A stretch of 64,000 nucleotides of DNA from IMG/VR virus record IMGVR_UViG_3300047564_003701, positions 11,687 through 75,686 of that record. One strand, 5' to 3'. The position numbers and the translations under genes were made by a program. Numbering within the stretch: the first letter of the stretch is position 1; each line of letters begins with the position of its first letter. This document shows, piece by piece, positions 8,933-31,094 of this stretch. This DNA is from a virus (lineage: Duplodnaviria > Heunggongvirae > Uroviricota > Caudoviricetes). The notes under the pieces were generated by a model. That model ran no database searches, had not been told where the DNA came from, and worked only from the letters and a program-made list of their open reading frames with translations.

Positions 8933-8933
8933 T

Positions 8934-9473: not shown

Positions 9474-9483
9474 AGTGTGTTAT

Positions 9484-10046: not shown

Positions 10047-10088
10047 TAGTTGCTCCGGTAATAGTAGGGGATTTCTCCCCCACTAATA

Positions 10089-10526: not shown

Positions 10527-10530
10527 AATA

Positions 10531-10569: not shown

Positions 10570-10570
10570 A

Positions 10571-10762: not shown

Positions 10763-10764
10763 TT

Positions 10765-12666: not shown

Positions 12667-12670
12667 ACAT

Positions 12671-12710
12671 ATCTCCTTATAAAGTAAGATCTATTTGGGC
12701 TCTATGCCCT
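12671..12710 (-). promoter_or_regulatory. conserved ~40-nt upstream element (copy 2, 5' of dnaK)
   Basis: Same 20-nt and 14-nt blocks as at 10531..10569, with a 6-nt instead of 5-nt spacer. Confidence 0.45.
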
Positions 12711-12744
12711 GTAAATTGCCCTATGGTACAATTTACGATTTTAT

Positions 12745-16555: not shown

Positions 16556-16997
16556 AACAGGCAGTCTGCGTCATAACCTTTTCTGTATCATATGCAATAA
16601 CCTGCATATGAATTCTCCTACAGTATCCAGAACCAGTAGGCCACGTCATTACAGGCACTGCTAGACCACTGGCCCTATTCTGATACCATTTAACTGTTTG
16701 TCCGTTTTCTGCAAACATCACTGCGTGTGTCACAGCTTGATTATGAGCCGCTTTTTCTTGGGGGTCTAGGGTTTTAAACCAACCAAAAGAAAAATCCATC
16801 ATATGATTTGCAAAGTCGCCGCCGCGATAGTTAAAAAATCTTGGATTATCAACATCGCTGGCAGCGGCATCTATACTACTGAACAACATGACCAATGGTA
16901 TTAACAATTTCCCAGCTACCGTCAGGTTTCTGGCAGCTGATTCCTTTGCGTTGAACATTGCGTCCTCCAATCTGCATCCAATATGAAAATTCGCCAC
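16509..16997 (-). CDS. secreted protein with 17-kDa surface-antigen-like domain (start uncertain)
   Basis: C-terminal 'QTVKWYQN...GSGYCRRIHMQVIAY...QTACFENAHNNWRW' follows the x-W-x-N...YCR...C....W pattern of the Rickettsia 17-kDa antigen C-terminal domain. The N-terminus overlaps the upstream lipoprotein gene, so the real start is probably an internal Met. Confidence 0.45.
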   Translation of the reverse strand: MANFHIGCRLEDAMFNAKESAARNLTVAGKLLIPLVMLFSSIDAAASDVDNPRFFNYRGGDFANHMMDFSFGWFKTLDPQEKAAHNQAVTHAVMFAENGQTVKWYQNRASGLAVPVMTWPTGSGYCRRIHMQVIAYDTEKVMTQTACFENAHNNWRWLVDKY

Positions 16998-17205
16998 AGT
17001 TAGGAGACATTCCTAGTCTTTTGGAAGTAAGACGTTCAATCTGATCGTCAGTACATTCTACTCGGACACGACTGTTAACCTGTTCTCTATTTTCAGTTTC
17101 AATAGTTTGATAGGTATAACAATATTGTGGCTTTTCTGCTACTACCTTAGGGGCCGAACTACAGCCTGCCGCTATTAATGAAACGGCTACGATAGCCGCT
17201 CTCAT
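16876..17205 (-). CDS. lipoprotein, 17-kDa surface-antigen-like
   Basis: Lipobox AAGCSS. 'NCGEFSYWMQIGGRNVQRKGISCQKPDGSWEIVN' matches '[34 protein letters not shown]' of the 17-kDa antigen family. Confidence 0.55.
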   Translation of the reverse strand: MRAAIVAVSLIAAGCSSAPKVVAEKPQYCYTYQTIETENREQVNSRVRVECTDDQIERLTSKRLGMSPNCGEFSYWMQIGGRNVQRKGISCQKPDGSWEIVNTIGHVVQ

Positions 17206-17687
17206 TATCGGGAAGCTTTCTGCTCTTTGGCTTCAGAGATCAACTGATCGAAAACAGACTTAGGCATCTTAAGACGAACGAATGTATAATGACGACCATT
17301 CATTGTAAAATGTCCTACTTCGCGGTTGATGTGTTCACGAATAGTAGTATCCCTTACAACATAAGAAATTTTAGTATAAGTCTTTTTCTTATCGTTGTCG
17401 AAGACGATTTCGGTGTTGCTGTTAACTTCACTATTAATGCGTTTAGCGAAGTTATTCATAGCGATTGCGTACATCTGTTCTTCAGCGGCCTGTGCATGAA
17501 TTGATTCACCGGCGCCGCAGGCGTATGCAAATTCTTTTGACCACCAGAACCATCCTTCGGTTCCTGCTTGCGCACAGTCCTGATACCAACTAGGTTGAGC
17601 ATAGGTCTTGCGTTCTTCAATGCCTTTCATTGATGAGCAGCCAGTAATAGCCGCGGCCATCAAACCAACTACTAATGCCTTTTTCAT
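17205..17687 (-). CDS. hypothetical lipoprotein
   Basis: Lipobox ITGCSS. No confident domain. Possible outer-membrane spanin-like role, by position next to the lysis genes. Confidence 0.45.
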   Translation of the reverse strand: MKKALVVGLMAAAITGCSSMKGIEERKTYAQPSWYQDCAQAGTEGWFWWSKEFAYACGAGESIHAQAAEEQMYAIAMNNFAKRINSEVNSNTEIVFDNDKKKTYTKISYVVRDTTIREHINREVGHFTMNGRHYTFVRLKMPKSVFDQLISEAKEQKASR

Positions 17688-17768
17688 ATTTGCCTTTCTG
17701 TTTGCGGATTACAACAGTAATAATTGTAACAGGACCCAGAGGTCCTGTCAACAGTTCAAATTACCAAT

Positions 17769-18074
17769 TTATTTGAAGAAGATCAATGCCATCATAATAG
17801 CTTGAATTATAAATCCAAAACCTATAGTGATAACATTCAGCATATCTTTTTGGATTGCGGCTTTGACAAACAACAGAGAAAGCCCGCCCCAAACCAAGAG
17901 AACCAAATCTACAGCAGGTAATCGATCAGTTAAACCAGCCATAACTGCTAGTAAACTAGGCATGGTGCTGGCGTGTAGTATGATCACAGCCAACCAGCCA
18001 AAAGTTTCGGCAGAAATGTGACTGATCTTGTTTTGAACGAAATCCTTAAAATCTTTTAGTTCAAAGTTTGGCAT
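17769..18074 (-). CDS. small membrane protein, holin candidate
   Basis: 101 aa with 2-3 transmembrane helices. Its start overlaps the end of the endolysin gene. Confidence 0.4.
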   Translation of the reverse strand: MPNFELKDFKDFVQNKISHISAETFGWLAVIILHASTMPSLLAVMAGLTDRLPAVDLVLLVWGGLSLLFVKAAIQKDMLNVITIGFGFIIQAIMMALIFFK

Positions 18075-18642
18075 ATTGTTCCCTTTCTTTTCCTCGATAA
18101 AAAATGTGTTGGCCGATCTTACCTATCTTTTCGAGAGGCCATCTCGGATTGACATAGGTGGCATGATAATATAAAGCATCTTTGAGAATGTCCAATCGGA
18201 AGTTCTCCAAAAGAACTTTTTTAGCAACAGCGTAACTTTCATTGTAAGCCTCCTTGTTCACTGGTCTTGTTCTGGCAGCAGAATCGCAATGCCAACTAAA
18301 TTGACAAATGACTTTTTCCATCACTACCGTTTTCTGATGCACAACTCCGCAGACATCTTTGGGGAAGGCCGGGTGAGCTACTCTGTTGAGAGTGACTTGT
18401 GCTACAGCTACTTTTCCTTCAAAAGGCTCGTAGCCAGCTTCGCGATAGATATTCATCGCTAGGCATTCTAATTGGCGTTCCCTAGTTTTGATAGAAACAA
18501 CGTCTTGAGAATACAGAGCATTGTTTTCTTTTAATTTTTCAAATTTATTTTGGGTAAGCGCACTCAAACTGTAGGCAAGAAAAAACAAGCCTATAATACA
18601 GGTTAAAAACTTAATTGACTTTTCCATAAGTCCTCCTTTCAT
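18061..18642 (-). CDS. cell-wall hydrolase, SleB-like (Hydrolase_2 family) endolysin with N-terminal signal-anchor
   Basis: AMNIYREAGYEPFEGKVAVAQVTLNRVAHPAFPKDVCGVV...QFSW matches the SleB/Hydrolase_2 core. Has an N-terminal hydrophobic segment. Confidence 0.7.
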   Translation of the reverse strand: MKGGLMEKSIKFLTCIIGLFFLAYSLSALTQNKFEKLKENNALYSQDVVSIKTRERQLECLAMNIYREAGYEPFEGKVAVAQVTLNRVAHPAFPKDVCGVVHQKTVVMEKVICQFSWHCDSAARTRPVNKEAYNESYAVAKKVLLENFRLDILKDALYYHATYVNPRWPLEKIGKIGQHIFYRGKEREQYAKL

Positions 18643-18920
18643 TTGGTGTCACGATTAACTGCGACATTACATTAAGGGAGTAAACTTCACGAGGCTCTTG
18701 AAAGAACCCTGGGTTCGTGTAGTTTGTCTCCATCGGACGCACAATCTCATAACTTGTGTGCCTTTGGAGCCTTGACCGCCCGAATCTCACGGGTTTCTCA
18801 TAGGCCAAGACTCGCGGATCCTTTTCTGCTTTTGACATACTTTGGACCTACTATCTTAGTTTCTTTGCGAAACGTATAATATATAGTTCATCTTTCATAT
18901 TATAGCACGAAAACCGGCGA

Positions 18921-19310
18921 TTATCGACGCATTTTGGCGATATCTACCGCCTGCTCGTCCGAAAAGATTGGAACTGCATTACTCTTATGCATAGTACCAA
19001 TACCTTTAATCTTATCACCGGTATAGACTTTTTGCTCTGGTTTAGTACAAGGGCCACCAGTAAATGGTAGGCTAGGGATCTTAGGTTGATCAGATCCTCT
19101 GTAAAATGGTGCGGGAGTTGACAGAGTCGGAGCAGACATAGCACGTTTCTTACGCTTTTCTTGTTGCTCGATACCCCATTTTTTCAATAAGTCGTTCCAA
19201 TTTTCTTCCAATTGTCTAGCCTTTCGTGCTTCATCTGCATTGCGAAACTTACGTTTGCCTTTTTTCTTTCCCGTAGTTGAAAGCCACGGACCTTCCAAAT
19301 GCATACTCAA
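18921..19310 (-). CDS. hypothetical basic protein
   Basis: Lys/Arg-rich 129-aa ORF. Confidence 0.4.
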   Translation of the reverse strand: MSMHLEGPWLSTTGKKKGKRKFRNADEARKARQLEENWNDLLKKWGIEQQEKRKKRAMSAPTLSTPAPFYRGSDQPKIPSLPFTGGPCTKPEQKVYTGDKIKGIGTMHKSNAVPIFSDEQAVDIAKMRR

Positions 19311-19370
19311 AATAAGCCTCCAAAACTGTTACTGATGTATTACTATAACATCTTTGCAATAGACTGTCAA

Positions 19371-19406
19371 GAAAAACCCGCCTAGGGCGGGTCTTTTGGT
19401 TTTTTG
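19371..19406. terminator. bidirectional intrinsic terminator
   Basis: Perfect hairpin CCCGCC-TAG-GGCGGG flanked by an A-run upstream and T-runs downstream (aaaaacccgcctagggcgggtcttttggtttttt). Confidence 0.55.
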
Positions 19407-19415
19407 ATCTATGTA

Positions 19416-19487
19416 TTAGCGATTAGCGATATACATAGTGATCTCAAAACCGTAACGCATTTCAGTAGCTTCTGGTTTGGTCCACAT
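19416..19487 (-). CDS. possible 23-aa micro-protein
   Basis: ATG 7 nt after a perfect AAGGAG. Frame encodes MWTKPEATEMRYGFEITMYIANR. Lies between the glycosyltransferase gene and the terminator. Confidence 0.25.
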   Translation of the reverse strand: MWTKPEATEMRYGFEITMYIANR

Positions 19488-19583
19488 AATGTTTCTCCTT
19501 TTTTACATCATTAAAAACATACTTGCATCAGTATGTATCTATATTATATGATAAAAACTACCAGAAAACCATAGTGAAATTCA

Positions 19584-20594
19584 TTAAATTATACTAATCA
19601 AATTGTTTTTGAAAATCTTCCAGCAATTTTCCCAAGTCCATTTTTCTGCAGTCTCTCTGACTCTTTCTCTATTATAATTGGCTGCTATACGAATACTAAG
19701 AGATAGATTTTCGCTCATATGTCCATTCACGCCTTGTTCCAAAATATCAATAGGACCAGGAACTGGATATGCGGCCACTGGTGTACCTAGACTAAGGCTT
19801 TCTATAATGACGATACCAAATGTATCTGTTCGGCTAGGGAAGCAAAATACATCTGCTTGTGCGTAGCAGTCTGCCAAATCGCTACCCGATTTATATCCCA
19901 GAAACTTTACTCTAGAATATTTTTTTTCTAACTCATTTCGGTAAGGGCCGTCCCCAACAATGGTTATATCAAACTCATTTTCTAAACGACACAGCTCATC
20001 TAGATTTTTTTCTTTGCTAACACGACCTACATATAGAACAGAAAGATTCAGATGAAGATACTTATGATGACTCCATTTAATGCTAGTTGATAGTGTTTCT
20101 CGATCTACTCCCCTGGTCCAAGAAACGATATCACCTTTAAATCCGTGTGATTTTAAATCGTCAACCATTGTATCAGTCGTAGTCAGTACTTTGCCGCTGT
20201 GTTTATGAAACCATCGAACATACCAATAAGTCCAACTTATGGGTATCTTGTATATTTCGTTTAAAAATTCAGGAAATTTAGTATGGTAACTAGTATTGTA
20301 ACGATAGCCGCGTTGGTCAAGATAAAGTCTAGCACACAGACCAACAGGACCCTCGGTGGCGATATGTATATAATCCGGAGATATCTCCTCAATCTTCTTG
20401 CCGATCTTCCTAGGAAGGCTAAGTTTAACTTCAGGGTAGCCTGGGCAACTAAAATGTAAGAACTCCCTGGGATCAAGGTATAAAAGGCTATACCCGTCCA
20501 AAACAGCGTGTTTCTCAATACTCTTGAAGGTCGTAACAACGCCATTGATCTGCTCCGGTAAATTATCAGTGATGACTAAGATTGTTTTATGCAT
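19584..20594 (-). CDS. glycosyltransferase, family 1 (GT4-like)
   Basis: C-terminal GT-B donor-binding motif (FCFPSRTDTFGIVIIESLSLGTPVAAY). Confidence 0.75.
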   Translation of the reverse strand: MHKTILVITDNLPEQINGVVTTFKSIEKHAVLDGYSLLYLDPREFLHFSCPGYPEVKLSLPRKIGKKIEEISPDYIHIATEGPVGLCARLYLDQRGYRYNTSYHTKFPEFLNEIYKIPISWTYWYVRWFHKHSGKVLTTTDTMVDDLKSHGFKGDIVSWTRGVDRETLSTSIKWSHHKYLHLNLSVLYVGRVSKEKNLDELCRLENEFDITIVGDGPYRNELEKKYSRVKFLGYKSGSDLADCYAQADVFCFPSRTDTFGIVIIESLSLGTPVAAYPVPGPIDILEQGVNGHMSENLSLSIRIAANYNRERVRETAEKWTWENCWKIFKNNLISII

Positions 20595-20654
20595 CTTCCC
20601 TCTACTCGAAAACTTTCAAACTTTAACCAATAGGTCATACTTTGTAACACCTGT

Positions 20655-21500
20655 TCACATTGTTGCTGTGTTTGGAACTGTAGGGTTATTCTTCCCGGTA
20701 TGTCGTTTGGGTTGTTTGTGTGAACTGCTATCAATATCATCAACCACATCATCTCGCTCCTTAGTCCACGTTACTATTTCCCAACGGCCGTCCCAATGTT
20801 CAACTAATGCTGTACAACTTTCGACCCAGTCACCGTCGTTCATATATGTGACACCGTTGATTTCTTTAATCTCTGCGTGATGTATGTGTCCGCAGATAAC
20901 GCCATCAAAGCCACGCTTCTTACAGTAGTTGGCTAAGTTCTCTTCAAATTTGAATACGAAGTCTACTGCTTTTTTAACTTTGTACTTAAGAAACTTGCTA
21001 AGGCTAAAGTACCCAAAACCCATACGGCGACGAATCCAATTAAATTTACTGTTGAGGTTAAGAACAACGTCATATGCTTTATCTCCTAAGAATGCTATCC
21101 AAGGTGCTAGGCGGGTGATGCCATCAAACAGGTCTCCGTGTACAACTAGATAGTGTTTGCCGTCTGCGCCTATATGTTCTACTTGATTATGTATTTCTAT
21201 TAGACCAAAATTGAAACCATATGGTATCATTGGTCTTAAAAATTCATCGTGATTGCCTGCTATGAATACAACTCGTGTGCCACGTTTAGCGTGTCCTAGT
21301 ACTCTGCGTACCACGTTAGTATGACTTTGTTTCCATCGCCATTTGTTTTGTTGTATCTTCCAAGCATCAATTATATCACCTACAAGATAAAGAGTGTCGC
21401 AGGTGTTGTGTTTAAGAAAGTTGTTGAGATGCTCGGCCTTACAATCTTTGGTGCCGAGATGTACGTCGGAAATAAAAATGGAACGGTAAGTTCGCTGCAT
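20655..21500 (-). CDS. calcineurin-like metallophosphoesterase, LpxH-like (UDP-2,3-diacylglucosamine hydrolase family)
   Basis: SDVHLG ... GDIIDAW ... AGNHDEF ... GH.H motifs in LpxH order. Confidence 0.6.
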   Translation of the reverse strand: MQRTYRSIFISDVHLGTKDCKAEHLNNFLKHNTCDTLYLVGDIIDAWKIQQNKWRWKQSHTNVVRRVLGHAKRGTRVVFIAGNHDEFLRPMIPYGFNFGLIEIHNQVEHIGADGKHYLVVHGDLFDGITRLAPWIAFLGDKAYDVVLNLNSKFNWIRRRMGFGYFSLSKFLKYKVKKAVDFVFKFEENLANYCKKRGFDGVICGHIHHAEIKEINGVTYMNDGDWVESCTALVEHWDGRWEIVTWTKERDDVVDDIDSSSHKQPKRHTGKNNPTVPNTATM

Positions 21501-21554
21501 AGCAGTATTTACCGTTCCTTGGTGTGTGTAATATTACAGATCAGTTACAAATAA

Positions 21555-21713
21555 TTAAATTTGAACTACGGTCCATCGGTGTGTAAAATGCTTACCTTCG
21601 GCCTTGCGTTTCAAGATTTTTTGGAACTCGTGTTTCTTAAGCTCTGCCATCTTCTTGGCGTCGTGGTCGAAGCAAGCCTTATACAGTTCCGCTATGAGCT
21701 TTTTCTGTCGCAT
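21555..21713 (-). CDS. possible small protein (52 aa)
   Basis: ATG preceded by GGAGG. Encodes [30 protein letters not shown].... Fills the gap between the LpxH-like and AhpD-like genes. Confidence 0.3.
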
Positions 21714-21741
21714 AGTCTTGCCCCTCCTTGTAATTTATTTA

Positions 21742-22251
21742 TTAACTGTTTAACACCTTAGCAACACTGTTCATTACAGCAGCGATGCGTCCAATGTCTC
21801 TCAACTGATCAACTGAATAACCTTCTGCCTTTAGTGTGTCGAAATGTGCCTTCACACAGAAATGACATTTGCCTACGATACTGGCTGCTAAACTATATGC
21901 CTCAAATCTTGCCTTTGTAGTACCGCCGTGACTGGCAATAGCATTCATACGCAGTTGTGGCGGGATGCCTTCTAGAGCACCGCCTACCATTTCAACATAT
22001 GGATACCAAACGTTGTTCTGCGCCATGATAGCCGATGCTGTCAATGCTGCGTCACGTTCTCTGAGATCTTCAATGCCACTAGATACAAATGTTACTAACT
22101 TACCGTTGCCTGTGGACATTGCGGCTGCTAAGGCACACCCTTGAGCTTCTATTGCATCTAATGTGCTACGGTTTATAACCGCGTCAAGGTTTAGTCTAGT
22201 GTCCTTAGCGTATTCCGGGAGTGCCTCTTTGATTTGTTCTACCCAACTCAT
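21742..22251 (-). CDS. AhpD-like alkylhydroperoxidase / carboxymuconolactone decarboxylase family
   Basis: AhpD-core CxxC-xxH signature (GKCHFCVKAH). Confidence 0.7.
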   Translation of the reverse strand: MSWVEQIKEALPEYAKDTRLNLDAVINRSTLDAIEAQGCALAAAMSTGNGKLVTFVSSGIEDLRERDAALTASAIMAQNNVWYPYVEMVGGALEGIPPQLRMNAIASHGGTTKARFEAYSLAASIVGKCHFCVKAHFDTLKAEGYSVDQLRDIGRIAAVMNSVAKVLNS

Positions 22252-22673
22252 TGTGTGTCTCCTTGTGTTTTCTTAGCGATCGCTTTGTATCCTTTATATG
22301 TAGGATGCACACCATCTGCACTTATTTCGTGATCCCTAGAGTCAATGACGACATCGTGATATTTCTCAGCGATTTTTTGTACGTTGGCTCTCTTGGTATC
22401 TTTGATAGCAGGAAGGATCCAATAGACCCTGTCCGCTTTTACTAAATGCCTTAAAGTGTGTAGTTCCTCATAGGTATTGATACTTTTATAGTCGTTTGAC
22501 CCTAGGCTGATAATCACAGTCTTTGCTTCTTTGTAATTAGTACCGGTGTATAGGATATGACGATTAACATAGTCATAACTATTGATACCACTCTTAGCAT
22601 AGGTCACACATTCTTTACGGATCTGTCCCACTCCAACTGCAAGGCTATCGCCTAAAATCAAACATTCTAACAT
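22248..22673 (-). CDS. SGNH/GDSL hydrolase
   Basis: Block I ILGDSLAVG, block III GSND and block V DGVHPT. Confidence 0.7.
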   Translation of the reverse strand: MLECLILGDSLAVGVGQIRKECVTYAKSGINSYDYVNRHILYTGTNYKEAKTVIISLGSNDYKSINTYEELHTLRHLVKADRVYWILPAIKDTKRANVQKIAEKYHDVVIDSRDHEISADGVHPTYKGYKAIAKKTQGDTQ

Positions 22674-22685
22674 AATATTGTTCCC

Positions 22686-23243
22686 TTAGAGAGTCTCGCC
22701 ACCAACTGTACGGTTACAAGCACATAGCTCGCCAGTTTGTAACGCATCCAATACACGAAGTGTTTCTTCTGGTGAGCGACCAACGTTCAAGTTGTTGACG
22801 GTAACGTGTTGGATAACGTTGTCTGGATCAACAATGAATGTGGCACGAAGTGCAGCACCTGCTGGAGCATAGAACACGCCGAGCTGATTAATCAGGCTTA
22901 GATCTTCCATGGTGTTGTCATTCCAACGCTGCGTATCTGCAAACTGTGTATGCGTGATCTTTTGTAGATCTGGGTGTGCCTTTTGCCAGCTGACTTTACA
23001 GAACTCGTTGTCTGTTGAACCTGTGAGCAGTACTGCATCACGGTCGGCAAAGTCGCCGGCTAGTTTGTCGTAGGCTACAATTTCTGTAGGGCAAACGAAT
23101 GTAAAGTCCTTTGGGTAGTAAACGATTACTTTCCACTTACCTTCAAAACTTTGGTCTGTAATGTCAAAGAACGCATCTTCTGGTTGACCAGGCTTGACAC
23201 CTGTTACTGCGAATTTTTCTAATTTATCACCAACTGTTTTCAT
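22686..23243 (-). CDS. peroxiredoxin (AhpC/TSA family)
   Basis: FTFVCPTEI peroxidatic Cys motif. Start placed at the internal ATG at 23243, which has an AAGGAGAAG SD. The longer ORF in the track is probably an upstream artefact. Confidence 0.8.
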   Translation of the reverse strand: MKTVGDKLEKFAVTGVKPGQPEDAFFDITDQSFEGKWKVIVYYPKDFTFVCPTEIVAYDKLAGDFADRDAVLLTGSTDNEFCKVSWQKAHPDLQKITHTQFADTQRWNDNTMEDLSLINQLGVFYAPAGAALRATFIVDPDNVIQHVTVNNLNVGRSPEETLRVLDALQTGELCACNRTVGGETL

Positions 23244-23384
23244 ATCTTCTCCTTGTGTGTGTTTGAAAACTTCAATAACTCTGTATTGTATGTGTATATT
23301 ATATATCCTATTAAAATGCAAAATCAATAGATTTTTTCTAAATATTTTTTTATGACGATCATAGGAAAAATCAATAACGAAAAG

Positions 23385-23416
23385 AAAGCGGCCCGAAGGC
23401 CGCTTTACTATTTTGG
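23385..23416. terminator. intrinsic terminator (hairpin GCGGCC-cgaa-GGCCGC with flanking T/A runs)
   Basis: On the minus strand the hairpin is followed by TTTCTTTTCGTT. Positioned at the 3' end of the tmRNA coding piece. Confidence 0.5.
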
Positions 23417-23740
23417 TTGACAAGGCATAGTTGCCCCGGAGTGGCAGTTTCTTAGGCTGCTAGAGCGAATCTACCTTCATTAGCTGCACCAACGGTGTTG
23501 CCTGTGAAGTTCAATGCGCCAAACTCAAATGTATCTGCGTTTGCATTTACGTTTTTTGCTTCTGCGACCGGGTTACTCCAATCCTACGGGTTCTGCTTTC
23601 CCGAGCTGTCCACTCTGTTACTCTTTGCCCTGTCGAAACCATGTACACCCCCAACGCAGGATACTTTTAAAATATCCTCCGGTGGAGGTGGGGAGATTCG
23701 AACTCCCGTCCAGAACACTTTTCTCTTTGCTTCATACAGC
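23405..23740 (-). ncRNA. ssrA: circularly permuted (two-piece, alphaproteobacterial-type) tmRNA, ssrA
   Basis: Minus strand, acceptor piece: T-arm GGGAG-TTCGAAT-CTCCC, then 3' acceptor strand CACCTCC, discriminator A and CC (plus 23681..23707). A short intervening hairpin follows (GGATA..TATCC). Coding piece begins GGGGGTG-TACAT-GGTTTCGACAGGG at plus 23652. Its first 7 nt pair perfectly with the 3' acceptor strand, including G3:U70. An internal frame ends GCAGCTAATGAAGGTAGATTCGCTCTAGCAGCC-TAA, i.e. AANEGRFALAA-stop (23452..23487). The terminator follows. Confidence 0.75.
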
Positions 23741-23748
23741 AATAACTT

Positions 23749-24159
23749 TTATTTAATCCAACCTATCTTTTCGCCAGCATCTTTGCGACGATCATGTTCT
23801 TCTGGAGTATTTGGATATCTCCAGGCCCAAACAGCGACCAATGCCATAAACACTGCTGTTGAAATAATACCGATAAGTTTTACCCCACCTGTCCACATTA
23901 GTATAAGGCTTAATGACATCATTGTCAACATCAAATAACGTAGTTTTTGAGGAAAAACTCTTTTTTCGCTCCAATTGGTTAAAAATGGTCCGAAAATCTT
24001 ATGATTGTAAATCCAACGATGCATACGCTCACTGCCCTTAGAAAAACAATAAGCTGAAAATACAATAAACGGGCTGTAAGGAATTCCAGGTGTGATCAAT
24101 CCGATATAGGCCAGTCCTAAACTAATAAATCCTAAAACATTCCAAAATAATTTTTTCAT
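23749..24159 (-). CDS. YbaN/DUF454-family inner membrane protein
   Basis: MKKLFWNVLGFISLGLAYIGLITPGIPYSPFIVFSAYCFSKGSERMHRW parallels E. coli YbaN. Start taken at the internal ATG at 24159. Confidence 0.6.
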   Translation of the reverse strand: MKKLFWNVLGFISLGLAYIGLITPGIPYSPFIVFSAYCFSKGSERMHRWIYNHKIFGPFLTNWSEKRVFPQKLRYLMLTMMSLSLILMWTGGVKLIGIISTAVFMALVAVWAWRYPNTPEEHDRRKDAGEKIGWIK

Positions 24160-24161
24160 TT

Positions 24162-24425
24162 TTATCCCGCAAATACATCTGATGAACCTGTCGCAGCGTG
24201 TCCGCAACTGGCTGTGTCTCCTGCTCGGCATACCGGTATATTATGAGCGAAAACAGTTCCGCTAGCACCTACCATAACAGGGCCGCTGTGAGGTGATCTT
24301 CCGTGACCAGATATGGCCGCTCCCTTAACTACTATAGGTGCATTATTGACAAAGACCGTAGGTGCAAGATTACCGACTATGGTACCTCCTGCTTGATCTA
24401 CCCCTACTCTTGAGATTCCTGGCAT
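24162..24425 (-). CDS. PAAR-repeat protein (spike-tip, T4 gp5.4-like)
   Basis: ~87 aa Gly/Val-rich with repeated 'G.AA.SGHG / VMVGASG / CRAGDTASCGH' PAAR-type beta-turn motifs. Confidence 0.65.
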   Translation of the reverse strand: MPGISRVGVDQAGGTIVGNLAPTVFVNNAPIVVKGAAISGHGRSPHSGPVMVGASGTVFAHNIPVCRAGDTASCGHAATGSSDVFAG

Positions 24426-24426
24426 A

Positions 24427-24882
24427 TTAAAAAACCGTTGGTAAAGAACTAACTTTATCTTTGTATTGATTAAATTTGGCCAATGCTTCTGCTACTTTTT
24501 CAGCCGATATATTGTTTGTCTCTTCCAGTATTTTACCTTCTTCGATGAAGAGTTTATACAATGATAAAAGTCCTACCCATTCCCAAGGTCCTACAAAATG
24601 TACTCCTGTACCTTCAGCAAGTTCTTTAACTTTTTTCTGATAAGTTTCAATAGCTGTTAGTTTTGTGGCTATAGTTGTTTGTTGGGTAGCTATAGTTGTT
24701 TGTTGGGTAGCCATGCTTTCTACAGCAGTTTTTATAGCAGTAGAATTCGTTGCTAGGGTTTCTAAAGCTGTAGCTATTCTATCATAATACAAAGTGTAAT
24801 CTATGGCTACCGCTACGCCTTCGCTGACACTTTCTCCAGTTACTACTGGTCTACTGTTTGGGTTGACTAATGTAATTGCCAT
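24427..24882 (-). CDS. hypothetical protein with internal tandem repeat
   Basis: Contains a perfect 21-nt x2 tandem repeat encoding ATQQTTI-ATQQTTI. Confidence 0.4.
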   Translation of the reverse strand: MAITLVNPNSRPVVTGESVSEGVAVAIDYTLYYDRIATALETLATNSTAIKTAVESMATQQTTIATQQTTIATKLTAIETYQKKVKELAEGTGVHFVGPWEWVGLLSLYKLFIEEGKILEETNNISAEKVAEALAKFNQYKDKVSSLPTVF

Positions 24883-24886
24883 TTAA

Positions 24887-25177
24887 TTACCTCATCGCTA
24901 TACCAGTTGTCCCTGATAGATATTGATCTGAGAATTCTTTGTCAGATGCTTCTATAACGACCACAGTTGATTTATTCATTTTAATTTCTTTATCGGGGCT
25001 AACAGTAAAAAGATAAGGCACCATCCCTATGCCCTTAGGACTCATGCTGAGAACTAACGGCTTAGATAGCTTATAATGCATCGGACCGTCTTCTACTAAC
25101 TTTGCTACTAATTCTTCTCCGCTGGTGAGTTTTAGAGTGACCACTTCACCTATTGCCACGCCTTTGTCAATTAACAT
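24887..25177 (-). CDS. hypothetical protein
   Basis: 96-aa ORF with no recognisable domain. Confidence 0.4.
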   Translation of the reverse strand: MLIDKGVAIGEVVTLKLTSGEELVAKLVEDGPMHYKLSKPLVLSMSPKGIGMVPYLFTVSPDKEIKMNKSTVVVIEASDKEFSDQYLSGTTGIAMR

Positions 25178-25191
25178 TCTATTTTCCTATT

Positions 25192-25440
25192 TTAATACCC
25201 GGTACCGTTAAATCCGGTTTCGTCGATATATTTTCTTAATTCTGTGAATCCGCCAATTACATTGCCATTGATGATAATTTGCGGTACTGTTCGAGCTGTA
25301 GGCACTTCTTCGAGCAATTCTTCTTTGGTGTATCCGTCGCCAATTTTCTTTTCTACAAATCGTATGTTACGTTGTCCCAATAATGCTTTGGCTTGATCAC
25401 AGTGGGTACAGTTATATTTGCTCCAAACTACTACTTCCAT
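25192..25440 (-). CDS. glutaredoxin-like protein (NrdC/NrdH-like)
   Basis: 82 aa with a CTHC active site near the N-terminus and the thioredoxin-fold TVPQIIINGNVIGG motif. Adjacent to the RNR genes. Confidence 0.75.
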   Translation of the reverse strand: MEVVVWSKYNCTHCDQAKALLGQRNIRFVEKKIGDGYTKEELLEEVPTARTVPQIIINGNVIGGFTELRKYIDETGFNGTGY

Positions 25441-25446
25441 TTTTAT

Positions 25447-25620
25447 TTCCTTTCAACTTGAGTAAATCACGGAACCCTTGTTATCAGTCACTCTGACTAA
25501 CAAGGCTCCCATATTCTTTCTATTTAATGCCGCCTGTATAGCAGCAGCTTCATTTCCATAAGAACCAATAGTAGTCCAAGACTCATAAGGACTTTTATTT
25601 TTAAACTGTGCTTTGTACAT
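25447..25620 (-). CDS. possible small protein (57 aa)
   Basis: Fills the 180-nt gap between grx and nrdB. Its ATG lies just downstream of the nrdB stop on the minus strand. Encodes MYKAQFKNKSPYESWTTIGSYGNEAAAIQAALNRKNMGALLVRVTDNKGSVIYSS. Confidence 0.3.
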
Positions 25621-25622
25621 AA

Positions 25623-26723
25623 TTATAGTTCCGGCAAAGACTCGTAGTCTATAGCATCTCCCATAACACCTATAATGTAATTAGTCGATTCGTTCTCTTG
25701 TAACGCAGTTTGTTTCTTTGAAGTATCGCTGTGTTTATTGAACCAAGGAATTGGATTGGTTTTAGGTGCAGGGTAAGAATATTTTATACCAATTTCTTTC
25801 AGTGCATTGGCCGCAGTAAAATCTACGAAATCTTTCAAAATGTTTGCATTCAAGCCAATGACAGGGCCTTTCTTGAATAGATAATCAGCCCATTCTTTTT
25901 CTTCTCGAATCACACCTAAATACATCTGATAAACTTCTTGTTCGCATTCTTGTTTGGCTTTGACAAATCTAGGATCTTCTTTAACTACTTGATTAATCAA
26001 GTAGGCTGTCCATCCTTTGTGTAGTAATTCATCTTGTAGGATCAAGCTGATGATGTTGCCGTTGCCGATAAAGATCTTATTCTCTACCATTGCTAACGAT
26101 GTAGCGAATGATACCATAAAGCGGAATGCCTCTAAAGCGTAACTGGCATTCAGTGCTAGCCAGATTGCTTTGATGTGTTCGAATTCATCAAATTTTTCTC
26201 CTAGCTCTTTACGACAGTTGATCATATGCAATCGATCATAGTAATAGCCTACACTACTTGCCATCTCAACGATTTCTTTAGTGTCGTGGATTGTGTTGAA
26301 CACTTCCTTAGGCACGTTATAGATGTTACGGATGATGTGACTGTAACTGCGACTGTGAATGTTGGTTTCGAAGAATGTCCAATTGTAGACTAATGCTTCT
26401 AATTCTGGCAGGCCCACGACTGGTGTAAAGATCTGACTTGGTCCACGCCCTTGCAGACTGTCAAGAGCAGTTTGACGTAGTAGGTTACTGGTGAAGATAT
26501 GTTTAACTGCATCTGATGCATCCTTAAAGTCTTGTGAATCTTTAGTTAGACTAATCTCTTCAGGCACCCAAAAGAATCCCCTAGCAGTCTTTTCAAAATC
26601 TACAATTTTGTTATATTTTACTTCTTCAAATCGTTGAATGGTAACTGGACCTGCAGGGTCTAGAAACATCTTACGATTTGAGTAATCGGTTTTGGTTGAT
26701 AGGTTATATTGTTGTTTGCTCAT
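25623..26723 (-). CDS. nrdB: ribonucleotide reductase class Ia, beta subunit
   Basis: Ferritin-like di-iron protein. Conserved Glu/His ligand helices and the C-terminal tail. Confidence 0.85.
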   Translation of the reverse strand: MSKQQYNLSTKTDYSNRKMFLDPAGPVTIQRFEEVKYNKIVDFEKTARGFFWVPEEISLTKDSQDFKDASDAVKHIFTSNLLRQTALDSLQGRGPSQIFTPVVGLPELEALVYNWTFFETNIHSRSYSHIIRNIYNVPKEVFNTIHDTKEIVEMASSVGYYYDRLHMINCRKELGEKFDEFEHIKAIWLALNASYALEAFRFMVSFATSLAMVENKIFIGNGNIISLILQDELLHKGWTAYLINQVVKEDPRFVKAKQECEQEVYQMYLGVIREEKEWADYLFKKGPVIGLNANILKDFVDFTAANALKEIGIKYSYPAPKTNPIPWFNKHSDTSKKQTALQENESTNYIIGVMGDAIDYESLPEL

Positions 26724-26725
26724 AA

Positions 26726-29053
26726 TTATAATTTACACGCTTCGCAATCTTCTATTTCTTCTTCTGGGTGAAATCCGTTCATTTGAATTAATTCTTCGGC
26801 GGGTTCATTAGATGTTTTGCTTCCTGCCTTGTTGATCAAACTATAGTAAAAAGTTTTGATACCCCACTTATGTGCCTGCATAAGATTTTTAACAATTAAT
26901 GTAGTAGAAACCTTACGATCTGGAAAATGTGCAGGGTTGTAGAAAGTGTTTGTTGAAATACTTTGATCAACATATGCAGCTAAGACAGCAGCAGTCTTTA
27001 AATATCCTGCACAGTCAGTTTGTTCCCACATAAGTTGATATTTGTTTTTTAATCGATTATATTCTGGAACTACCTGTGTAAAACTTCCGGCCTTGCTTTC
27101 TTTAGTTGATATAAGACTCATAGGCATTTCAATGCCATTTGTAGAATTAATAACAACACTACTAGACTCAACTGGAGCGATAGCCATAAGAGTAGCATTT
27201 CGTACACCATATTGCTTCATCTCCTCACGTAAATGTTCCCAATCGAGTTCAGGAGTAAAGTCAGCAAGTTCATTAACACCGTTGGCTCGAAGTTCCCAAG
27301 GAAAGATTCCCTGTCCGTAACGAGTTTTGGCACTGTCTACGCAAGCCCCTCGTTCTTTTGCCAGCTCTACTGTGGCTTCGGTTAGATAAAATGCCTGGTG
27401 TTCCATCCAAGATTTTACTTCGGCTAGAGCATCAGCTTCTCCATATTTCAGACCACGTTTGGCGTGCCAGTAGGCTAGATTGGTCACTCCTATGCCCAGT
27501 GGCTGTATCTCATCGTTACTGAGTTTGCTCTGTATCGATAAGAAGTCTTGATAATCAAGGATGTTACACAAGCTACGCTGTAGAATCCTTGCGGCCCTAC
27601 GCATATCTTCTGGGTTCCGGAACGCACCCCAGTTGAGAGATCCCAGTGTACATAACGCTATGCGACCATCAGCATCGTCAAGTCTTTTAAAGGGACGTGT
27701 GGGTAATAGAATCTCACAGCACAAGTTACTCTGATATATCGCGTGATATTCAGGATTAAAAGGTCCTTGATCGATAACATTATCGATAAAGACCAAATAG
27801 ATACGACCAGTGTCTGTGCGCTCCTTCAGTATACCACCCTTGAAAACTTCTTCGGCTGAGATAGATTTTTTTCTCAGTCCTGATTGTTTCTCATATTTTA
27901 CATACAGTTCTTCGAATAGTTTAGTGTCTTTGTAAAATGCTTCGTAAAGATCAGGCACTTCGTTAGGATCAAAGAAAGTAATATTTTCTTTGTTTTTAAA
28001 CCTACGCCAAAAGAAAGCTGATAAGACCACTCCGTAGTCCATGTGTCTAACACGAGTTTCTTCAGTTCCTTGATTGTTCTTAAGAACAATAAGGTCGTCA
28101 AACTGATGATGCCAAATAGGATAAAACACTGTAGCACTAGCATTTCTAATGCCGCCTTGTGAGCAAGAACGTAAGTCACCAAACCACTTCTTTAAAAAAG
28201 GAATCATACCAGTGTGCATGATTTCACCACCACGTATAGGACTGCCCAATGGACGTAAGCGTCCAATTTCTAAACCAATGCCTGCACGTTTGCTGGCATA
28301 CTTGGCCATCATCTCCCCACTAGCAAATATGCTATCCAAATCGTCGTCACTGCGGATAAGAACACAACTAGAAAACTGTTTAGTAGGAGTCCCAAGCCCA
28401 GCCAACACAGGAGTAGCAAGAGTAAACAAACCATCTGAAGCACAGTTGTAGTACTCTTTGATGTAACGCATACGGGCTGCATTAGGTTCTTCTTTATGGA
28501 ACACAGTCGCGGCAGCAACCATATAACGAACTTGTGGTGTCTCATAAATTTCCTTTGTCGCACGGTTGCGTACCAAATATTTTTCAATCAACTGCTCAAT
28601 GCTGGCATAACCATATTCTTCATCTTTAGAATGATCCAACATATCATCCATCTTATTCCAATCGTCTTCTGAATACCATTCAAGAAGTTCCGGAGTATAA
28701 AGACCAACTTCAACATTCTTCTTTACGATGTCGTAGAGGCGAGGAACTTCGTAACTACCATATACATCTTTGCGTAACATCGAAAGACGTTGCTTGCCTG
28801 CGACATATTGATAATTTGTATGTCCTACATCGGGATTGTTTTCAACATCAATAAGATCTACAATAGCTCTAAGAGTTATGCCATCGATTTCTCTCGTGGT
28901 GATGCCGTCATAAAAATGTGGTTGTGCTTTTATTTCAATCATTGACTGGCTGACGTCTGCTATTCCGCTACAAACTTTCGCTACCTGCGCCTGCCATTTT
29001 TCAATTGTTAAAGATTCTTTCTTTCCATCTCTTTTAATTACTGTAATCGACAT
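26726..29053 (-). CDS. nrdA: ribonucleotide reductase class Ia, alpha subunit
   Basis: N-terminal ATP-cone (VIKRDGKKESL), catalytic barrel with active-site Cys/Asn/Glu motifs, and a C-terminal CEAC-like tail (CEACKL). Confidence 0.9.
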   Translation of the reverse strand: MSITVIKRDGKKESLTIEKWQAQVAKVCSGIADVSQSMIEIKAQPHFYDGITTREIDGITLRAIVDLIDVENNPDVGHTNYQYVAGKQRLSMLRKDVYGSYEVPRLYDIVKKNVEVGLYTPELLEWYSEDDWNKMDDMLDHSKDEEYGYASIEQLIEKYLVRNRATKEIYETPQVRYMVAAATVFHKEEPNAARMRYIKEYYNCASDGLFTLATPVLAGLGTPTKQFSSCVLIRSDDDLDSIFASGEMMAKYASKRAGIGLEIGRLRPLGSPIRGGEIMHTGMIPFLKKWFGDLRSCSQGGIRNASATVFYPIWHHQFDDLIVLKNNQGTEETRVRHMDYGVVLSAFFWRRFKNKENITFFDPNEVPDLYEAFYKDTKLFEELYVKYEKQSGLRKKSISAEEVFKGGILKERTDTGRIYLVFIDNVIDQGPFNPEYHAIYQSNLCCEILLPTRPFKRLDDADGRIALCTLGSLNWGAFRNPEDMRRAARILQRSLCNILDYQDFLSIQSKLSNDEIQPLGIGVTNLAYWHAKRGLKYGEADALAEVKSWMEHQAFYLTEATVELAKERGACVDSAKTRYGQGIFPWELRANGVNELADFTPELDWEHLREEMKQYGVRNATLMAIAPVESSSVVINSTNGIEMPMSLISTKESKAGSFTQVVPEYNRLKNKYQLMWEQTDCAGYLKTAAVLAAYVDQSISTNTFYNPAHFPDRKVSTTLIVKNLMQAHKWGIKTFYYSLINKAGSKTSNEPAEELIQMNGFHPEEEIEDCEACKL

Positions 29054-29074
29054 TTATTATTTCCTGTTTGCTAT

Positions 29075-29497
29075 TTATGGTAGGGTTTTGACTGACAGCA
29101 ATATGCTGGTTTTGATTTCGGAAAGACAGTCTGCACTTAGGATCTCTCCGTATTCATAATTTAAGACTTTGTCGTCTATAACTAGAAAGTATCTGTGTTC
29201 GCTGTCTTTCGATAACATAGACATATGTATCTCGCAAACCGAATCCATAAACCGCTGTGTTAACTTCAAAGTATACAGCATTCCAAGACAGATAGCAAGA
29301 TTATCTAGTTTTTCATCAAGAACTAGATGCCAAGGATCGGGCCAAGATTTTGGAGTTTGGGGATTCAGATACGGACTAACAAAGGGAGCTTTATTCCAAA
29401 AGTCTACCACGGCCTGTAAAGGATCGTCTAAGACTTCTAGCGTATTTCTAAACTCTTTCCATTTTGTTAATCTGTCTATGCCGTGTGCATCAAACAC
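29075..29497 (-). CDS. hypothetical protein
   Basis: 140-aa ORF. Confidence 0.4.
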   Translation of the reverse strand: MFDAHGIDRLTKWKEFRNTLEVLDDPLQAVVDFWNKAPFVSPYLNPQTPKSWPDPWHLVLDEKLDNLAICLGMLYTLKLTQRFMDSVCEIHMSMLSKDSEHRYFLVIDDKVLNYEYGEILSADCLSEIKTSILLSVKTLP

Positions 29498-31070
29498 CGT
29501 AATTCACAAACAAAGTGATGTTGCCATCAGCACCAGTGGCGATTGGATTCTTATAAGTTAAAATAATAGTCTCTTTCGCGCTGTCGCCTCTATTAGTTTT
29601 GAGTTCAGCTCCGAATTCAAAATTTGTCATCATGGCACCTCCCGGGTCTGTGATTAAAGATGAAGAATATTGATAACTGTCCGTGATAGCCACAGCATCC
29701 TGTGATTCATCTACGGTCAAATATAATGTTCCGTGTCTGTTGTATTGTTCGTTAAGTGTAACTGTGTAATCGATCACGTGATATCGATTTAGGGCAGATA
29801 GAGCCAATAAAGGTCTAAATGTGTCGCTTCTATAAACGATAGAAGCTATAGAATTAGAAAATTTAACTAGATTAGCGTTTTGAACTTCACCATATGCTGC
29901 TCTCGTATCTAGTGCTGTTAGATTGTATTGCTGAAGTCTGTCTGTTCTGCAGTCGATTACGATATTGTCAGCACTTTGTCCAAATATAATAAATGAATCA
30001 GTTGGGGTAGCATCATTACCTATCCCGTTACCGCAGTCAACAAAATGACAATTTCTAATTACTGTACCGGTTCCGTGAGCGATATATAGGGCTTGATTAG
30101 CAACTTCTTGAAATTTAGAATTTTTTACAGTCCAACTATTTTTTTGATTTTCTACACCAGTTAACAATATCGAAGTTGCATTTTCTAAAAACGAACATCC
30201 GTCTAGGGTTATCGAAGTTTCAAAAATATCTTCTTGACGGCATCGTATAGCGACTTTAGTTGATTCAAATTTGCAATTGTTGAATGCGATATTATCAACT
30301 TTAGTTCCGGCTAGATCGTTTTCCCAATAAACGCTGGCATTAGAATTTTCTAATTCTGAATTTGTAAATGTAGCAGCAGTAAGTTCAAAGTCTGATAAAA
30401 ATTTAACGCTGTCAAAGGTGCTGTCTTTTAAACCTGTGATAACGAGTTGACCTGAATCGTGTCTGATTGTTAAATTTGATATTTCTATATTCAGTGGTCT
30501 GTCAGTGTCTTGAAACTGTGCTACTTCTGTGCCGTCTTCGGAAATTAATAGTATATTGAAATCGCCTATATTCAACGATACTCCTTCTATACTTTCGCCT
30601 TTGATTCTGGCATTTGAAGGAATCCTAAGATTGTCACTGAACAGATAACTGCCGTTAGGTATGAAAAGAGTTTTTTTAAATTTAGGATCTGCGTTTCTAA
30701 ACAGTTGATTAAATGCATTTTCAAAAAACGTTGTAGAATCTGTAGATCCATCAGGAACCGCACCAAAGTCAAAAATACTGACATATTCGTCTAATTTATT
30801 CTGAAGGCCTCTAGGGACGCTTAGACTGATCGAGGGGTCATTGAATGCGAACCTATAGCTATTAGCTAGCTCTAATATATTATCGTGTTCGGTAAGTATC
30901 TTGGTGTTACCTACGTAAGGTGCACCGTCGGCTACTGATCCGTTACCGATATAAAGTTCTTGTGTATCTATGGCCCACGCTATTTCTGCTGCACTTAGCT
31001 GTGGAATGCCTGCGTTATTATTTTTTAATCCGCGGCGATGTTGTATTTTTGATATCTGAATGACGGCCAT
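29490..31070 (-). CDS. right-handed beta-helix (pectate-lyase fold) protein, tailspike/fibre-like
   Basis: FDFGAVPDGSTDSTTFFENAF start typical of pectin-lyase-fold proteins. Repetitive beta-helix coils with Asn ladders. Confidence 0.55.
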   Translation of the reverse strand: MAVIQISKIQHRRGLKNNNAGIPQLSAAEIAWAIDTQELYIGNGSVADGAPYVGNTKILTEHDNILELANSYRFAFNDPSISLSVPRGLQNKLDEYVSIFDFGAVPDGSTDSTTFFENAFNQLFRNADPKFKKTLFIPNGSYLFSDNLRIPSNARIKGESIEGVSLNIGDFNILLISEDGTEVAQFQDTDRPLNIEISNLTIRHDSGQLVITGLKDSTFDSVKFLSDFELTAATFTNSELENSNASVYWENDLAGTKVDNIAFNNCKFESTKVAIRCRQEDIFETSITLDGCSFLENATSILLTGVENQKNSWTVKNSKFQEVANQALYIAHGTGTVIRNCHFVDCGNGIGNDATPTDSFIIFGQSADNIVIDCRTDRLQQYNLTALDTRAAYGEVQNANLVKFSNSIASIVYRSDTFRPLLALSALNRYHVIDYTVTLNEQYNRHGTLYLTVDESQDAVAITDSYQYSSSLITDPGGAMMTNFEFGAELKTNRGDSAKETIILTYKNPIATGADGNITLFVNYGV

Positions 31071-31094
31071 TTGAATATACCCTTGTTAGGGTAT

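Follow-up and report, generated by a model that had tools for sequence, protein, structure and literature searches.

A circularly permuted two-piece tmRNA gene with a probable lengthened tag frame in an uncultured T4-like phage

The sequence analyzed here, which we call the window, is a stretch of 64,000 nucleotides (nt) from a tailed phage (IMG/VR record IMGVR_UViG_3300047564_003701, positions 11,687 to 75,686). Its minus strand carries a gene for transfer-messenger RNA (tmRNA, or ssrA), with a conserved 5’ end at ~23745 and a 3’ end at ~23383. ARAGORN calls a permuted tmRNA with a 30-residue tag at 23361..23772 on this strand. Two Rfam models match over their full lengths: RF04321 (tmRNA_permuted; 105.5 bits against a gathering score of 47, E=1.6e-19, model positions 1-213 of 213) and RF01850 (beta_tmRNA; 104.5 bits against a gathering score of 84, E=1e-30, model positions 1-331 of 331). 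These matches lie far beyond chance, and because two independent detectors agree, we accept the gene as real. No other Rfam family, riboswitch families included, reaches its gathering score in the rest of the 64-kb window. We propose that 23745..23383 is very probably an intact, phage-encoded, circularly permuted ssrA gene for a two-piece tmRNA, the product of which would act in trans-translation. The best-matching subtype is the betaproteobacterial two-piece form, a lineage reportedly described by Sharkady and Williams in 2004. The label ‘beta-type’ is best read as a model-based subtype and not as evidence of recent capture.

The two pieces of the RNA are encoded in permuted order, and all coordinates of the gene refer to the minus strand. 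The acceptor piece comes first (23681..23745; delimited by sequence, Rfam, cofolding and an alignment of 40 sequences). It contains the 5’ strands of helix P2 (distal GCUGU, 23740..23736; proximal UGUUCUG, 23717..23711), a T-arm at 23707..23691 with the form GGGAG (23707..23703)-UUCGAAU-CUCCC (23695..23691), the 3’ acceptor strand CACCUCC (23690..23684), a discriminator A (23683) and CC (23682..23681). Here the gene reads A-C-C-G; since CCA is not fully encoded, its terminal A must be added after transcription. The 28-nt spacer that follows, GGAGGAUAUUUUAAAAGUAUCCUGCGUU (23653..23680), opens with a Shine-Dalgarno-like GGAGGA and holds a hairpin. A hairpin CCUCC-ACC-GGAGG followed by a U-rich stretch, which reaches from the 3’ acceptor strand into the first part of the spacer (23676..23688), was flagged as terminator-like; in the precursor, this hairpin would be expected to compete with the acceptor stem.

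The coding piece (23383..23652; sequence, Rfam and cofolding) begins with the 5’ acceptor strand GGGGGUG (23652..23646), which pairs with CACCUCC over 7 bp, including the alanine identity pair G3.U70; in the gene, the 3’ strand lies upstream of the 5’ strand. After GGGGGUG the piece continues GGUUUCGAC; at the DNA level, the 5’ acceptor strand is followed by TACAT and then GGTTTCGACAGGG (in RNA, UACAU-GGUUUCGACAGGG). The 3’ strands of P2 come next (proximal CAGGGCA, 23632..23626; distal ACAGC, 23609..23605). Two hairpins supported by covariation in the family (23566..23603) lie between P2 and the resume codon, CGGG/CCCG (23603..23600 with 23590..23587) and GAUUGG/CCGGUC (23583..23578 with 23571..23566). 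The tag reading frame occupies 23452..23544 by ARAGORN, RF04321 and allele comparison. An H-type pseudoknot, found by Rfam and backed by compensatory variants, lies 3’ of the tag at 23407..23437; its stem 1 pairs GGGGCA (23437..23432) with UGCCUU (23427..23422), and its stem 2 pairs ACUAU (23431..23427) with AUAGU (23411..23407). The gene ends in an intrinsic terminator, AAAGCGGCC-UUCG-GGCCGCUUU followed by a U-tract (23385..23406; terminator scan and Rfam).

Comparison with relatives indicates that these helices are maintained. When the two pieces are folded together, the T-arm and acceptor stem form, as does the proximal P2 helix UGUUCUG/CAGGGCA. In a MAFFT alignment of 40 distinct constructs, used for both pairing and covariation, 95.8% of helix cells are paired, versus 47-52% when partners are slid; the observed covariation score was reached in 0 of 500 shuffles, and 10 pairs show double changes. 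All cells are paired in the T-arm and the acceptor stem (100% each), with changes on both sides in four of five and three of seven pairs, respectively. Proximal P2 is paired in 98.6% of cells, with both-side changes in two of its seven pairs, and G3.U70 is invariant (40/40 sequences). The distal P2 helix GCUGU/ACAGC also forms and hardly varies within the phage family; its unpaired cells come mainly from eight rows that stand one column out of register in the MAFFT alignment. Every one of 208 parsed relatives has a 7/7 acceptor stem, a 5/5 T-arm and a discriminator A. Compensatory variants of the downstream pseudoknot include GGGGUA/UACCUU, GGUAU/AUACC and GUUAU/AUAAC, and its stem 2 forms a perfect 5 bp in 92% of sequences, compared with 58% for mismatched partners. 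In the pseudoknot-1 region, the window has a 63-nt two-hairpin form common to ~30 family members, in which compensatory changes also occur (CGGU/ACCG, CGGC/GCCG, GGGC/GCCC; GGUUGG/CCGGCC).

The predicted tag is long. From the resume codon GCA (23544..23542), the frame runs through 30 codons, ANADTFEFGALNFTGNTVGAANEGRFALAA, to a UAA stop (23454..23452). Codons 21-30 (23484..23455) encode a canonical decapeptide, ANEGRFALAA, which shares 8 of its 10 residues with the Rhodocyclales tag ANDERFALAA. Codons 1-20 (23544..23485) form a lineage-specific extension, ANADTFEFGALNFTGNTVGA. Where the tag starts depends on the model: the beta model aligns the last ten codons only, whereas RF04321 and ARAGORN both start at GCA 23544. 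Relatives with short and with long tags share the resume context GUAAAY-GCA-AAC-G (GUAAAU-GCA-AAC-G in the window, with UAAAU-GCA-AAC-G at 23549..23538), which lies 60 nt upstream of the canonical decapeptide. The beta-type arrangement, with a decapeptide of the pattern ANDE(R/Q)FA(L/I/V)AA directly after the resume context, is absent from the window gene.

Homologous long tags occur at 20 viral loci in 11 distinct alleles, all of which keep the frame (e.g. ANADTFDFTALNFTGNTV-ANDSRFALAA). At strain level, 13 contigs encode the identical 30-residue peptide; by collection, it is found in a further four contigs of IMG/VR and in nine from metagenomes, with one contig common to the two sets. Loci L240 and L241 encode it with one synonymous change. 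The sole indel among the long-tag alleles is 6 nt and in frame. Across an 18-codon extension compared in 10 alleles, the ratio of nonsynonymous to synonymous polymorphism (pN/pS) is 0.40 in the tag frame, with zero stops; in the remaining frames it is 1.66 (8 stops) and 1.01 (22 stops). RNAalifold finds a weak fold over the extension, with a covariation term of -0.24, and RNA structure was rejected as the cause of its conservation, the fold being weak and the covariation negligible. The shared resume context, the frame-specific pN/pS without stops, the in-frame indel and the weak RNA fold together favor the long tag frame. They also make it probable that the extension itself is under peptide-level selection.

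How the extension arose may be hinted at by the tag itself. Its first and last ten codons are alike at 13-17 of 30 nt (shuffle p ~0.0002-0.02), a similarity to be read with the caveat that constraint acts on codons 1 and 2 of every tmRNA tag, and alleles such as ANDDAFDFRA-LSFTGNTV-ANDSRFALAA resemble a tag, a linker and a second tag. We read the extension as a tandem duplicate of the tag that has since diverged, together with a linker; these features are suggestive only. Several other relatives have independently extended tags, so tag lengthening is recurrent: in the same phage family, L167 encodes a 32-residue tag (ANTKTGTVKVTMSKAAFLGRVA-ANDSAVLLAA), L159, L227 and L041 encode tags of 28-29 residues that end in AVLA, AVMA or SFAV, and L128, L174, L213 and L228 encode a 13-residue tag, ANA-ANDEVYALAA. 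Tags called automatically in permuted phage tmRNAs cannot be relied upon. For near-identical genes, ARAGORN reports either ADAELVAA (L003, L006, L008, L011 and others) or a 23-residue tag, ANAFKPEVTVPMSVFADQELVAA (L004, L007, L013); when read from upstream, all of these genes encode a tag of ~23 residues, as do the syntenic alpha-type genes after correction of their resume calls. As a working guess, the extension could serve as an added recognition element, or as a spacer that changes the adaptor or protease for phage-tagged chains. As the tag is three times the usual length and its extension is absent from the cellular tags sampled, phage-tagged and host-tagged proteins could be separable by mass spectrometry, where the diagnostic tryptic peptide of the phage tag would be ANADTFEFGALNFTGNTVGAANEGR.

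An earlier interpretation of this DNA, made without database searches (the sequence-only reading), had proposed that this viral genome holds a two-piece tmRNA gene in circularly permuted form, and ARAGORN together with full-length matches to RF04321 and RF01850 bears this out. The elements that it listed on the minus strand (T-arm, acceptor strands, 28-nt spacer with a hairpin, 7-bp pairing, G3.U70, the FALAA-TAA ending and the terminator) are all present. The checks that it suggested also came out in its favor: two covariance models score above their gathering thresholds, and both the proximal P2 helix and the pseudoknot after the tag are formed, with covariation in each. It correctly named PAAR and YbaN (DUF454) genes as neighbors and dismissed the open reading frames (ORFs) called over the tmRNA as artefacts. 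Other points need amendment. Its span of 23405-23740 located the gene but cut into the terminator on the left, where the gene extends to ~23383, and fell short of the 5’ end at ~23745. The discriminator A and CC that it described are there, with the correction that the sequence continues ACC-G, leaving the terminal A unencoded. The tag does end in ...AANEGRFALAA, but those are the last 11 of 30 residues that begin at GCA 23544..23542. Finally, the permuted architecture holds, while the lineages to which it was attributed omitted the betaproteobacterial form, the best match.

Near-identical phages carry different versions of the tRNA-like part of this gene. Loci L239-L242 are 95-98% identical to the window over several kb, with an mRNA-like domain that is nearly identical, but one contiguous block is replaced: the T-arm, the 3’ acceptor strand, the spacer and the 5’ acceptor strand (23707..23646 in the window). 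Each version of this cassette is fully compensated in its stems, and at least four types occur on one mRNA-like domain (window, L239-L242, L261-L269). Eight strain-level assemblies have the L239 type, with GCGGG/CCCGC and GGGCCGG/CCGGUCC stems, a 122-nt spacer and a CCA that is encoded; a longer form (L240 type) occurs in three, and L242 has a third. The stems of the window are of the L001 type, on a background otherwise 98% identical to L242 and L239. The permuted layout would allow strains to swap the tRNA-like domain as a module.

The spacer is hypervariable in relatives, and the window has a minimal form. Its 28 nt are close to the bacterial median of 27.5 nt, whereas the viral median is 74 nt. 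In at least 22 distinct relatives, the spacer opens with a Shine-Dalgarno sequence right after ACCA (UAAGGAAGU or UAAGGAGAU) and contains an ORF of 24-83 codons that ends just before the 5’ acceptor strand (L159, L151, L235, L163, L175, L138/L130/L191, L239/L243 and L208/L225). Several of the predicted peptides are hydrophobic, and some are conserved between contigs, e.g. MNDDLT..GVVVVLVVFALVLL. Between groups the peptides show no relationship, and the spacer thus acts as a site for cargo; the excised spacer can, if these predicted small ORFs are real, carry protein-coding cargo. The spacer of the window appears to be a 28-nt remnant.

The gene belongs to a family that we find in uncultured phages. 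A P2-region pattern, GGTTTCGACAGGGCAANNAGTAACAGAGTGGACAGC, matches in at least 119 IMG/VR contigs, and 106 of 118 newly fetched family loci received a tmRNA call, nearly always permuted. Among 50,697 isolate phage records, neither megablast of window positions 20000..27000 nor blastn of the tmRNA gave a match. As part of our main explanation, we hold it very probable that the family is large and confined to uncultured phages; an abundant phage tmRNA family would then have gone undetected in isolate phage collections. The T-arm of the window in a permuted arrangement has no match in 185,579 species-representative bacterial genomes. A broader pattern finds 78 genome loci, nearly all in Rhodocyclales (Thauera, Azonexus, Accumulibacter), with 54-65% GC and 10-residue tags such as ANDERFALAA; this cellular comparison is a pattern-limited genome scan whose sample lies outside Methylophilaceae and Polynucleobacter.

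Across the tRNA-like domain and P2, the mean identity of the window gene is 89% to the phage family, ~73% to Rhodocyclales and 72-75% to alpha-type tmRNAs on phage contigs. Host inference from the tmRNA was set aside and we name no host, the window being no closer to Rhodocyclales than to the alpha-type phage tmRNAs. The window is colinear over ~15 kb (31796..16876) with IMG/VR contigs L003, L006, L014, L023 and L039, which have an alpha-type tmRNA in the same slot after nrdA-nrdB-glutaredoxin; the tmRNA is directly followed by AhpC in alpha-type phage contigs L016, L030, L033 and L038 as well. Recent capture, or an in-situ swap of an alpha allele for a host beta allele, is attractive given this synteny, but it is unsupported by the identity data. 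The exact glutaredoxin protein occurs in 132 metagenome-collection blocks, including JGI 3300002835 and ENA ‘GROS21’ samples, and sample names indicate that the source habitat is probably lakes or other freshwater. The exact DUF454 protein, when looked up, is not on record.

The window is from a T4-like phage. Genes around the tmRNA lie on one strand in the order nrdA, nrdB, glutaredoxin, PAAR, DUF454/YbaN, tmRNA, AhpC, GDSL hydrolase, AhpD-like protein, LpxH-like phosphoesterase and glycosyltransferase. Elsewhere, the window encodes a virion structural protein (phrog_1645, E=2e-127) that is 53-62% identical to cyanomyophage proteins, a DNA ligase and a 526-residue tail-spike-like protein, the last with no match among isolate phages. 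Directly downstream of the tmRNA, AhpC, the GDSL hydrolase and the AhpD-like CMD protein form a peroxide-defence module (21742..23243, minus strand). A 245-codon ORF with a TTG start (22686..23423) overruns the tmRNA terminator; AhpC itself probably begins with the ATG at 23243. Between DUF454 and the tmRNA, most strain-level relatives carry an additional 252-codon gene that lacks a Pfam match (L239 6765..7523; L261 6977..7735). This gene is missing from L242 and from the window, where it would sit between 23749 and 23745; the DUF454 gene is called with 136 residues in relatives that have it, versus a 160-residue ORF in the window.

Two further groups of genes lie far downstream on the same strand. 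A curli-like module (1375..6515) comprises csgG (5155..6072), csgF (6057..6515), a gene for a FecR-domain protein (3297..4397) and genes for two curlin-repeat proteins, at 1375..3309 and 4397..5080. The other group (6968..13329), a cluster for proteostasis and pigments, encodes bilin reductase, S-adenosylhomocysteine hydrolase, heme oxygenase, ClpS, HSP20, DnaK and an Rv2179c-like 3’-5’ exoribonuclease. ClpP (52724..53314, minus strand) lies 40 kb from this cluster. The sequence-only reading was right that the virus encodes ClpP and ClpS (9747..10046), but it assigned to both the degradation of ssrA-tagged proteins, which for ClpS runs counter to established knowledge: ClpS is, according to what Dougan et al. 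reportedly found in 2002, an N-degron adaptor of ClpAP that inhibits ClpAP on ssrA substrates.

The anatomy and evolutionary conservation of the gene are read from the sequences themselves; the processing, charging, SmpB dependence and proteolytic fate proposed here follow established tmRNA biology (reviewed in PMC3985003). A precursor RNA would be transcribed and end at the terminator. RNase P would cut 5’ of G23652 and a 3’ processing enzyme would cut after A-C-C, so that the 28-nt spacer is discarded; the terminal A that the gene lacks would come from the CCA-adding enzyme. The products would be an acceptor piece of ~65 nt (ending ...CACCUCCACCA) and a coding piece of ~270 nt, presumably held together by the 7-bp acceptor stem and the P2 helices. 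Host alanyl-tRNA synthetase would charge the RNA with alanine through G3.U70, and the charged RNA, with host SmpB and EF-Tu, would enter ribosomes stalled on broken mRNAs. Translation would resume at GCA 23544, add the 30 residues ANADTFEFGALNFTGNTVGA-ANEGRFALAA and terminate. The hydrophobic ALAA end may then send the tagged chain to Clp-type proteolysis, possibly including the phage’s own ClpP, with the net effect that ribosomes and amino acids are recycled during infection.

Several observations weigh against this model of a functional phage tmRNA with a long tag. The -10 box directly upstream of the gene is poor (TTAAAT, ~23756..23751), where relatives have TATAAT or TATACT; a candidate sigma-70-type promoter, TTGACA-17-TATACT with 11 of 12 consensus matches, is predicted on the minus strand at 23900..23928, which places it ~150 nt before the tmRNA, in the 3’ half of the gene for DUF454. 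CCA is incomplete in the window gene, as in only 17 of 138 viral relatives, and complete in the other 121; among bacterial relatives, the terminal A is unencoded in 68 of 70 (55 CCC, 12 CCT, 1 CCG). The middle of P2 is not convincingly paired in the Rfam alignment or on cofolding. The extension is under moderate selection, with variation in its first half and pN roughly equal to pS in the most divergent alleles. SmpB, ClpX and ClpA were not found in the 64-kb window, of which ~60 ORFs were scanned with Pfam or PHROGs, and tblastn with an E. coli SmpB sequence as query found no SmpB there. As the window lacks SmpB and a Clp unfoldase, the model depends on host factors. In addition, neither the exact T-arm, acceptor and spacer cassette of the window nor its spacer has a match in IMG/VR or JGI metagenome contigs.

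This last result leaves the ~75-nt cassette as either a rare recombinant or an assembly chimera. In the latter case the gene would be real, but its L001-type stems and unique 28-nt spacer would have been joined by metagenome assembly through conserved flanks: sequences of 36-38 nt that are common to many co-occurring phages border the cassette, and all 13 strain-level relatives have other cassettes. We regard a chimera as unlikely, since the cassette is internally consistent, with both stems compensated, and cassettes also differ, independently of the window, between other contigs that are nearly identical (eight assemblies with the L239 type, three with the L240 type, and L242), which makes real recombination at this site plausible. 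Cassette polymorphism in the phage population is real either way. Rather unlikely, in our judgment, is that translation resumes at GCA 23487 or GCU 23484 to add a tag of only 10-11 residues, (A)ANEGRFALAA, the upstream 57-60 nt being untranslated structural RNA such as an enlarged pseudoknot-1 region. It would explain why the beta_tmRNA model aligns the last 10 codons and treats the remainder as an insertion, and why those residues make a complete canonical tag; the inconsistent ARAGORN resume calls in other phage tmRNAs (ADAELVAA versus 23 residues in near-identical genes) also speak for it. Yet the conserved UAAAU-GCA-AAC-G sits at 23549..23538 and not before 23487, substitutions upstream are frame-specific in a stop-free tag frame with a single 6-nt indel, and the RNAalifold signal over the segment is weak (covariation -0.24).

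Two further explanations concern whether the RNA tags proteins at all. It could mainly inhibit host trans-translation as a decoy, by titrating SmpB or competing with host tmRNA; no phage SmpB is encoded in the window, and a tmRNA-inhibiting phage RNA that consists only of a tRNA-like domain (TLD) is documented, and such a role has been proposed for the TLD-only RNA of mycobacteriophage DS6A (PMC4131195, PMC11915505). A pure decoy, however, would have no need for purifying selection on a peptide, and here the tag frame is intact and conserved together with its resume context, its stop codon and the pseudoknot, which makes this account decidedly improbable. Nor do we give much weight to a non-functional, decaying host gene, which imprecise excision at an ssrA attachment site could, for instance, have brought in. 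The ssrA gene is often a prophage integration site, and fragments of it do occur in phages (PMC9004378), but this gene is full-length, with every helix compensated, is carried by at least 119 viral contigs, and sits in a slot conserved among colinear phage genomes. With no bacterial counterpart of this permuted T-arm in the 185,579 genomes and only ~73% identity to the Rhodocyclales tRNA-like domain, a decaying passenger is very improbable indeed.

Beyond the model of a functional phage tmRNA, we offer tentatively a broader idea that we ourselves consider doubtful. A widespread freshwater lineage of T4-like phages may have re-engineered trans-translation twice, once by building a tandem-duplicated composite degron of 28-30 residues and once by making the minihelix and its cargo an exchangeable cassette. 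If so, the conserved SFTGNTV-containing extension would give phage-tagged proteins another fate than host-tagged ones, possibly through recognition by a phage-specific adaptor or by a protease that contains phage ClpP. Because the acceptor strands, T-arm and spacer are adjacent in the permuted gene, an aminoacylation minihelix and a small-protein cargo would be exchanged as one cassette.

A permuted tmRNA in a phage is an already-known kind of gene, and the sequence-only reading overestimated the novelty of finding one. Phage ssrA genes have been catalogued since 2014 (PMC4131195), and 53 two-piece tmRNAs, nearly all from marine or aquatic settings, are known among 18,146 isolate phage genomes (Buchholz et al. 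2022, PMC9004378). A 2025 tmRNA database (PMC11915505) holds 79 phage sequences; its commonest tag length is 10 residues, and the intervening-sequence content it reports is a tRNA gene and a repetitive element, with no protein-coding cargo. What phage tmRNAs do has so far been answered by speculation alone (PMC9004378). New here are the extended tag, apparently under selection, the modular exchange of a tRNA-like cassette and the size of the tmRNA family in uncultured phages. The family, the cassette swap and the spacer cargo are not reported in the phage tmRNA literature cited here.

The closest cellular likeness is to the Rhodocyclales genes (RF01850), which share the permuted order, GGUUUCGACAGGG, a post-tag pseudoknot with a CCUUGU...AA loop, the terminator, a similar tag end (ANDERFALAA, compared with ANEGRFALAA) and a CCA that is likewise not fully encoded. 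They differ in their P2 sequence and in having 10 tag codons instead of 30, whereas the window gene has two hairpins upstream of its resume codon; their GC content is 54-65%, compared with 40% for the phage genome in the window. Among phages, the T4-like OM43 phage Melnitz, for which a two-piece tmRNA was described with only speculative functions, and the pelagimyophages are similar by published description in combining a permuted tmRNA with csgGF and nrdAB in a T4-like myophage (PMC9004378). Their tmRNA is alpha-type and their habitat marine, whereas the window gene matches the beta model and its phage is probably from freshwater. Melnitz also has a glutamine riboswitch at the 3’ end of its tmRNA, while the window has none at gathering threshold; the curli module of the window has components beyond the csgGF pair reported for Melnitz, and pelagimyophages also carry csgG and csgF. 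Syntenic IMG/VR contigs also have long tags, of ~23 residues, in alpha-type tmRNAs. Experimental precedent comes from Caulobacter crescentus, where Keiler, Shapiro and Williams (2000), as relayed in PMC3985003, reportedly showed that cleavage of a permuted precursor yields an acceptor piece and a coding piece, both active in trans-translation; that tmRNA is cellular and alpha-type with a 14-residue tag, whereas the window gene is phage-borne. The ssrA genes of mycobacteriophages (Bxz1 group) and Bacillus phage G are also phage-carried, but they are one-piece and unpermuted (PMC4131195). Phage DS6A has a TLD-only RNA that lacks a tag frame (PMC4131195), whereas the window gene has one.

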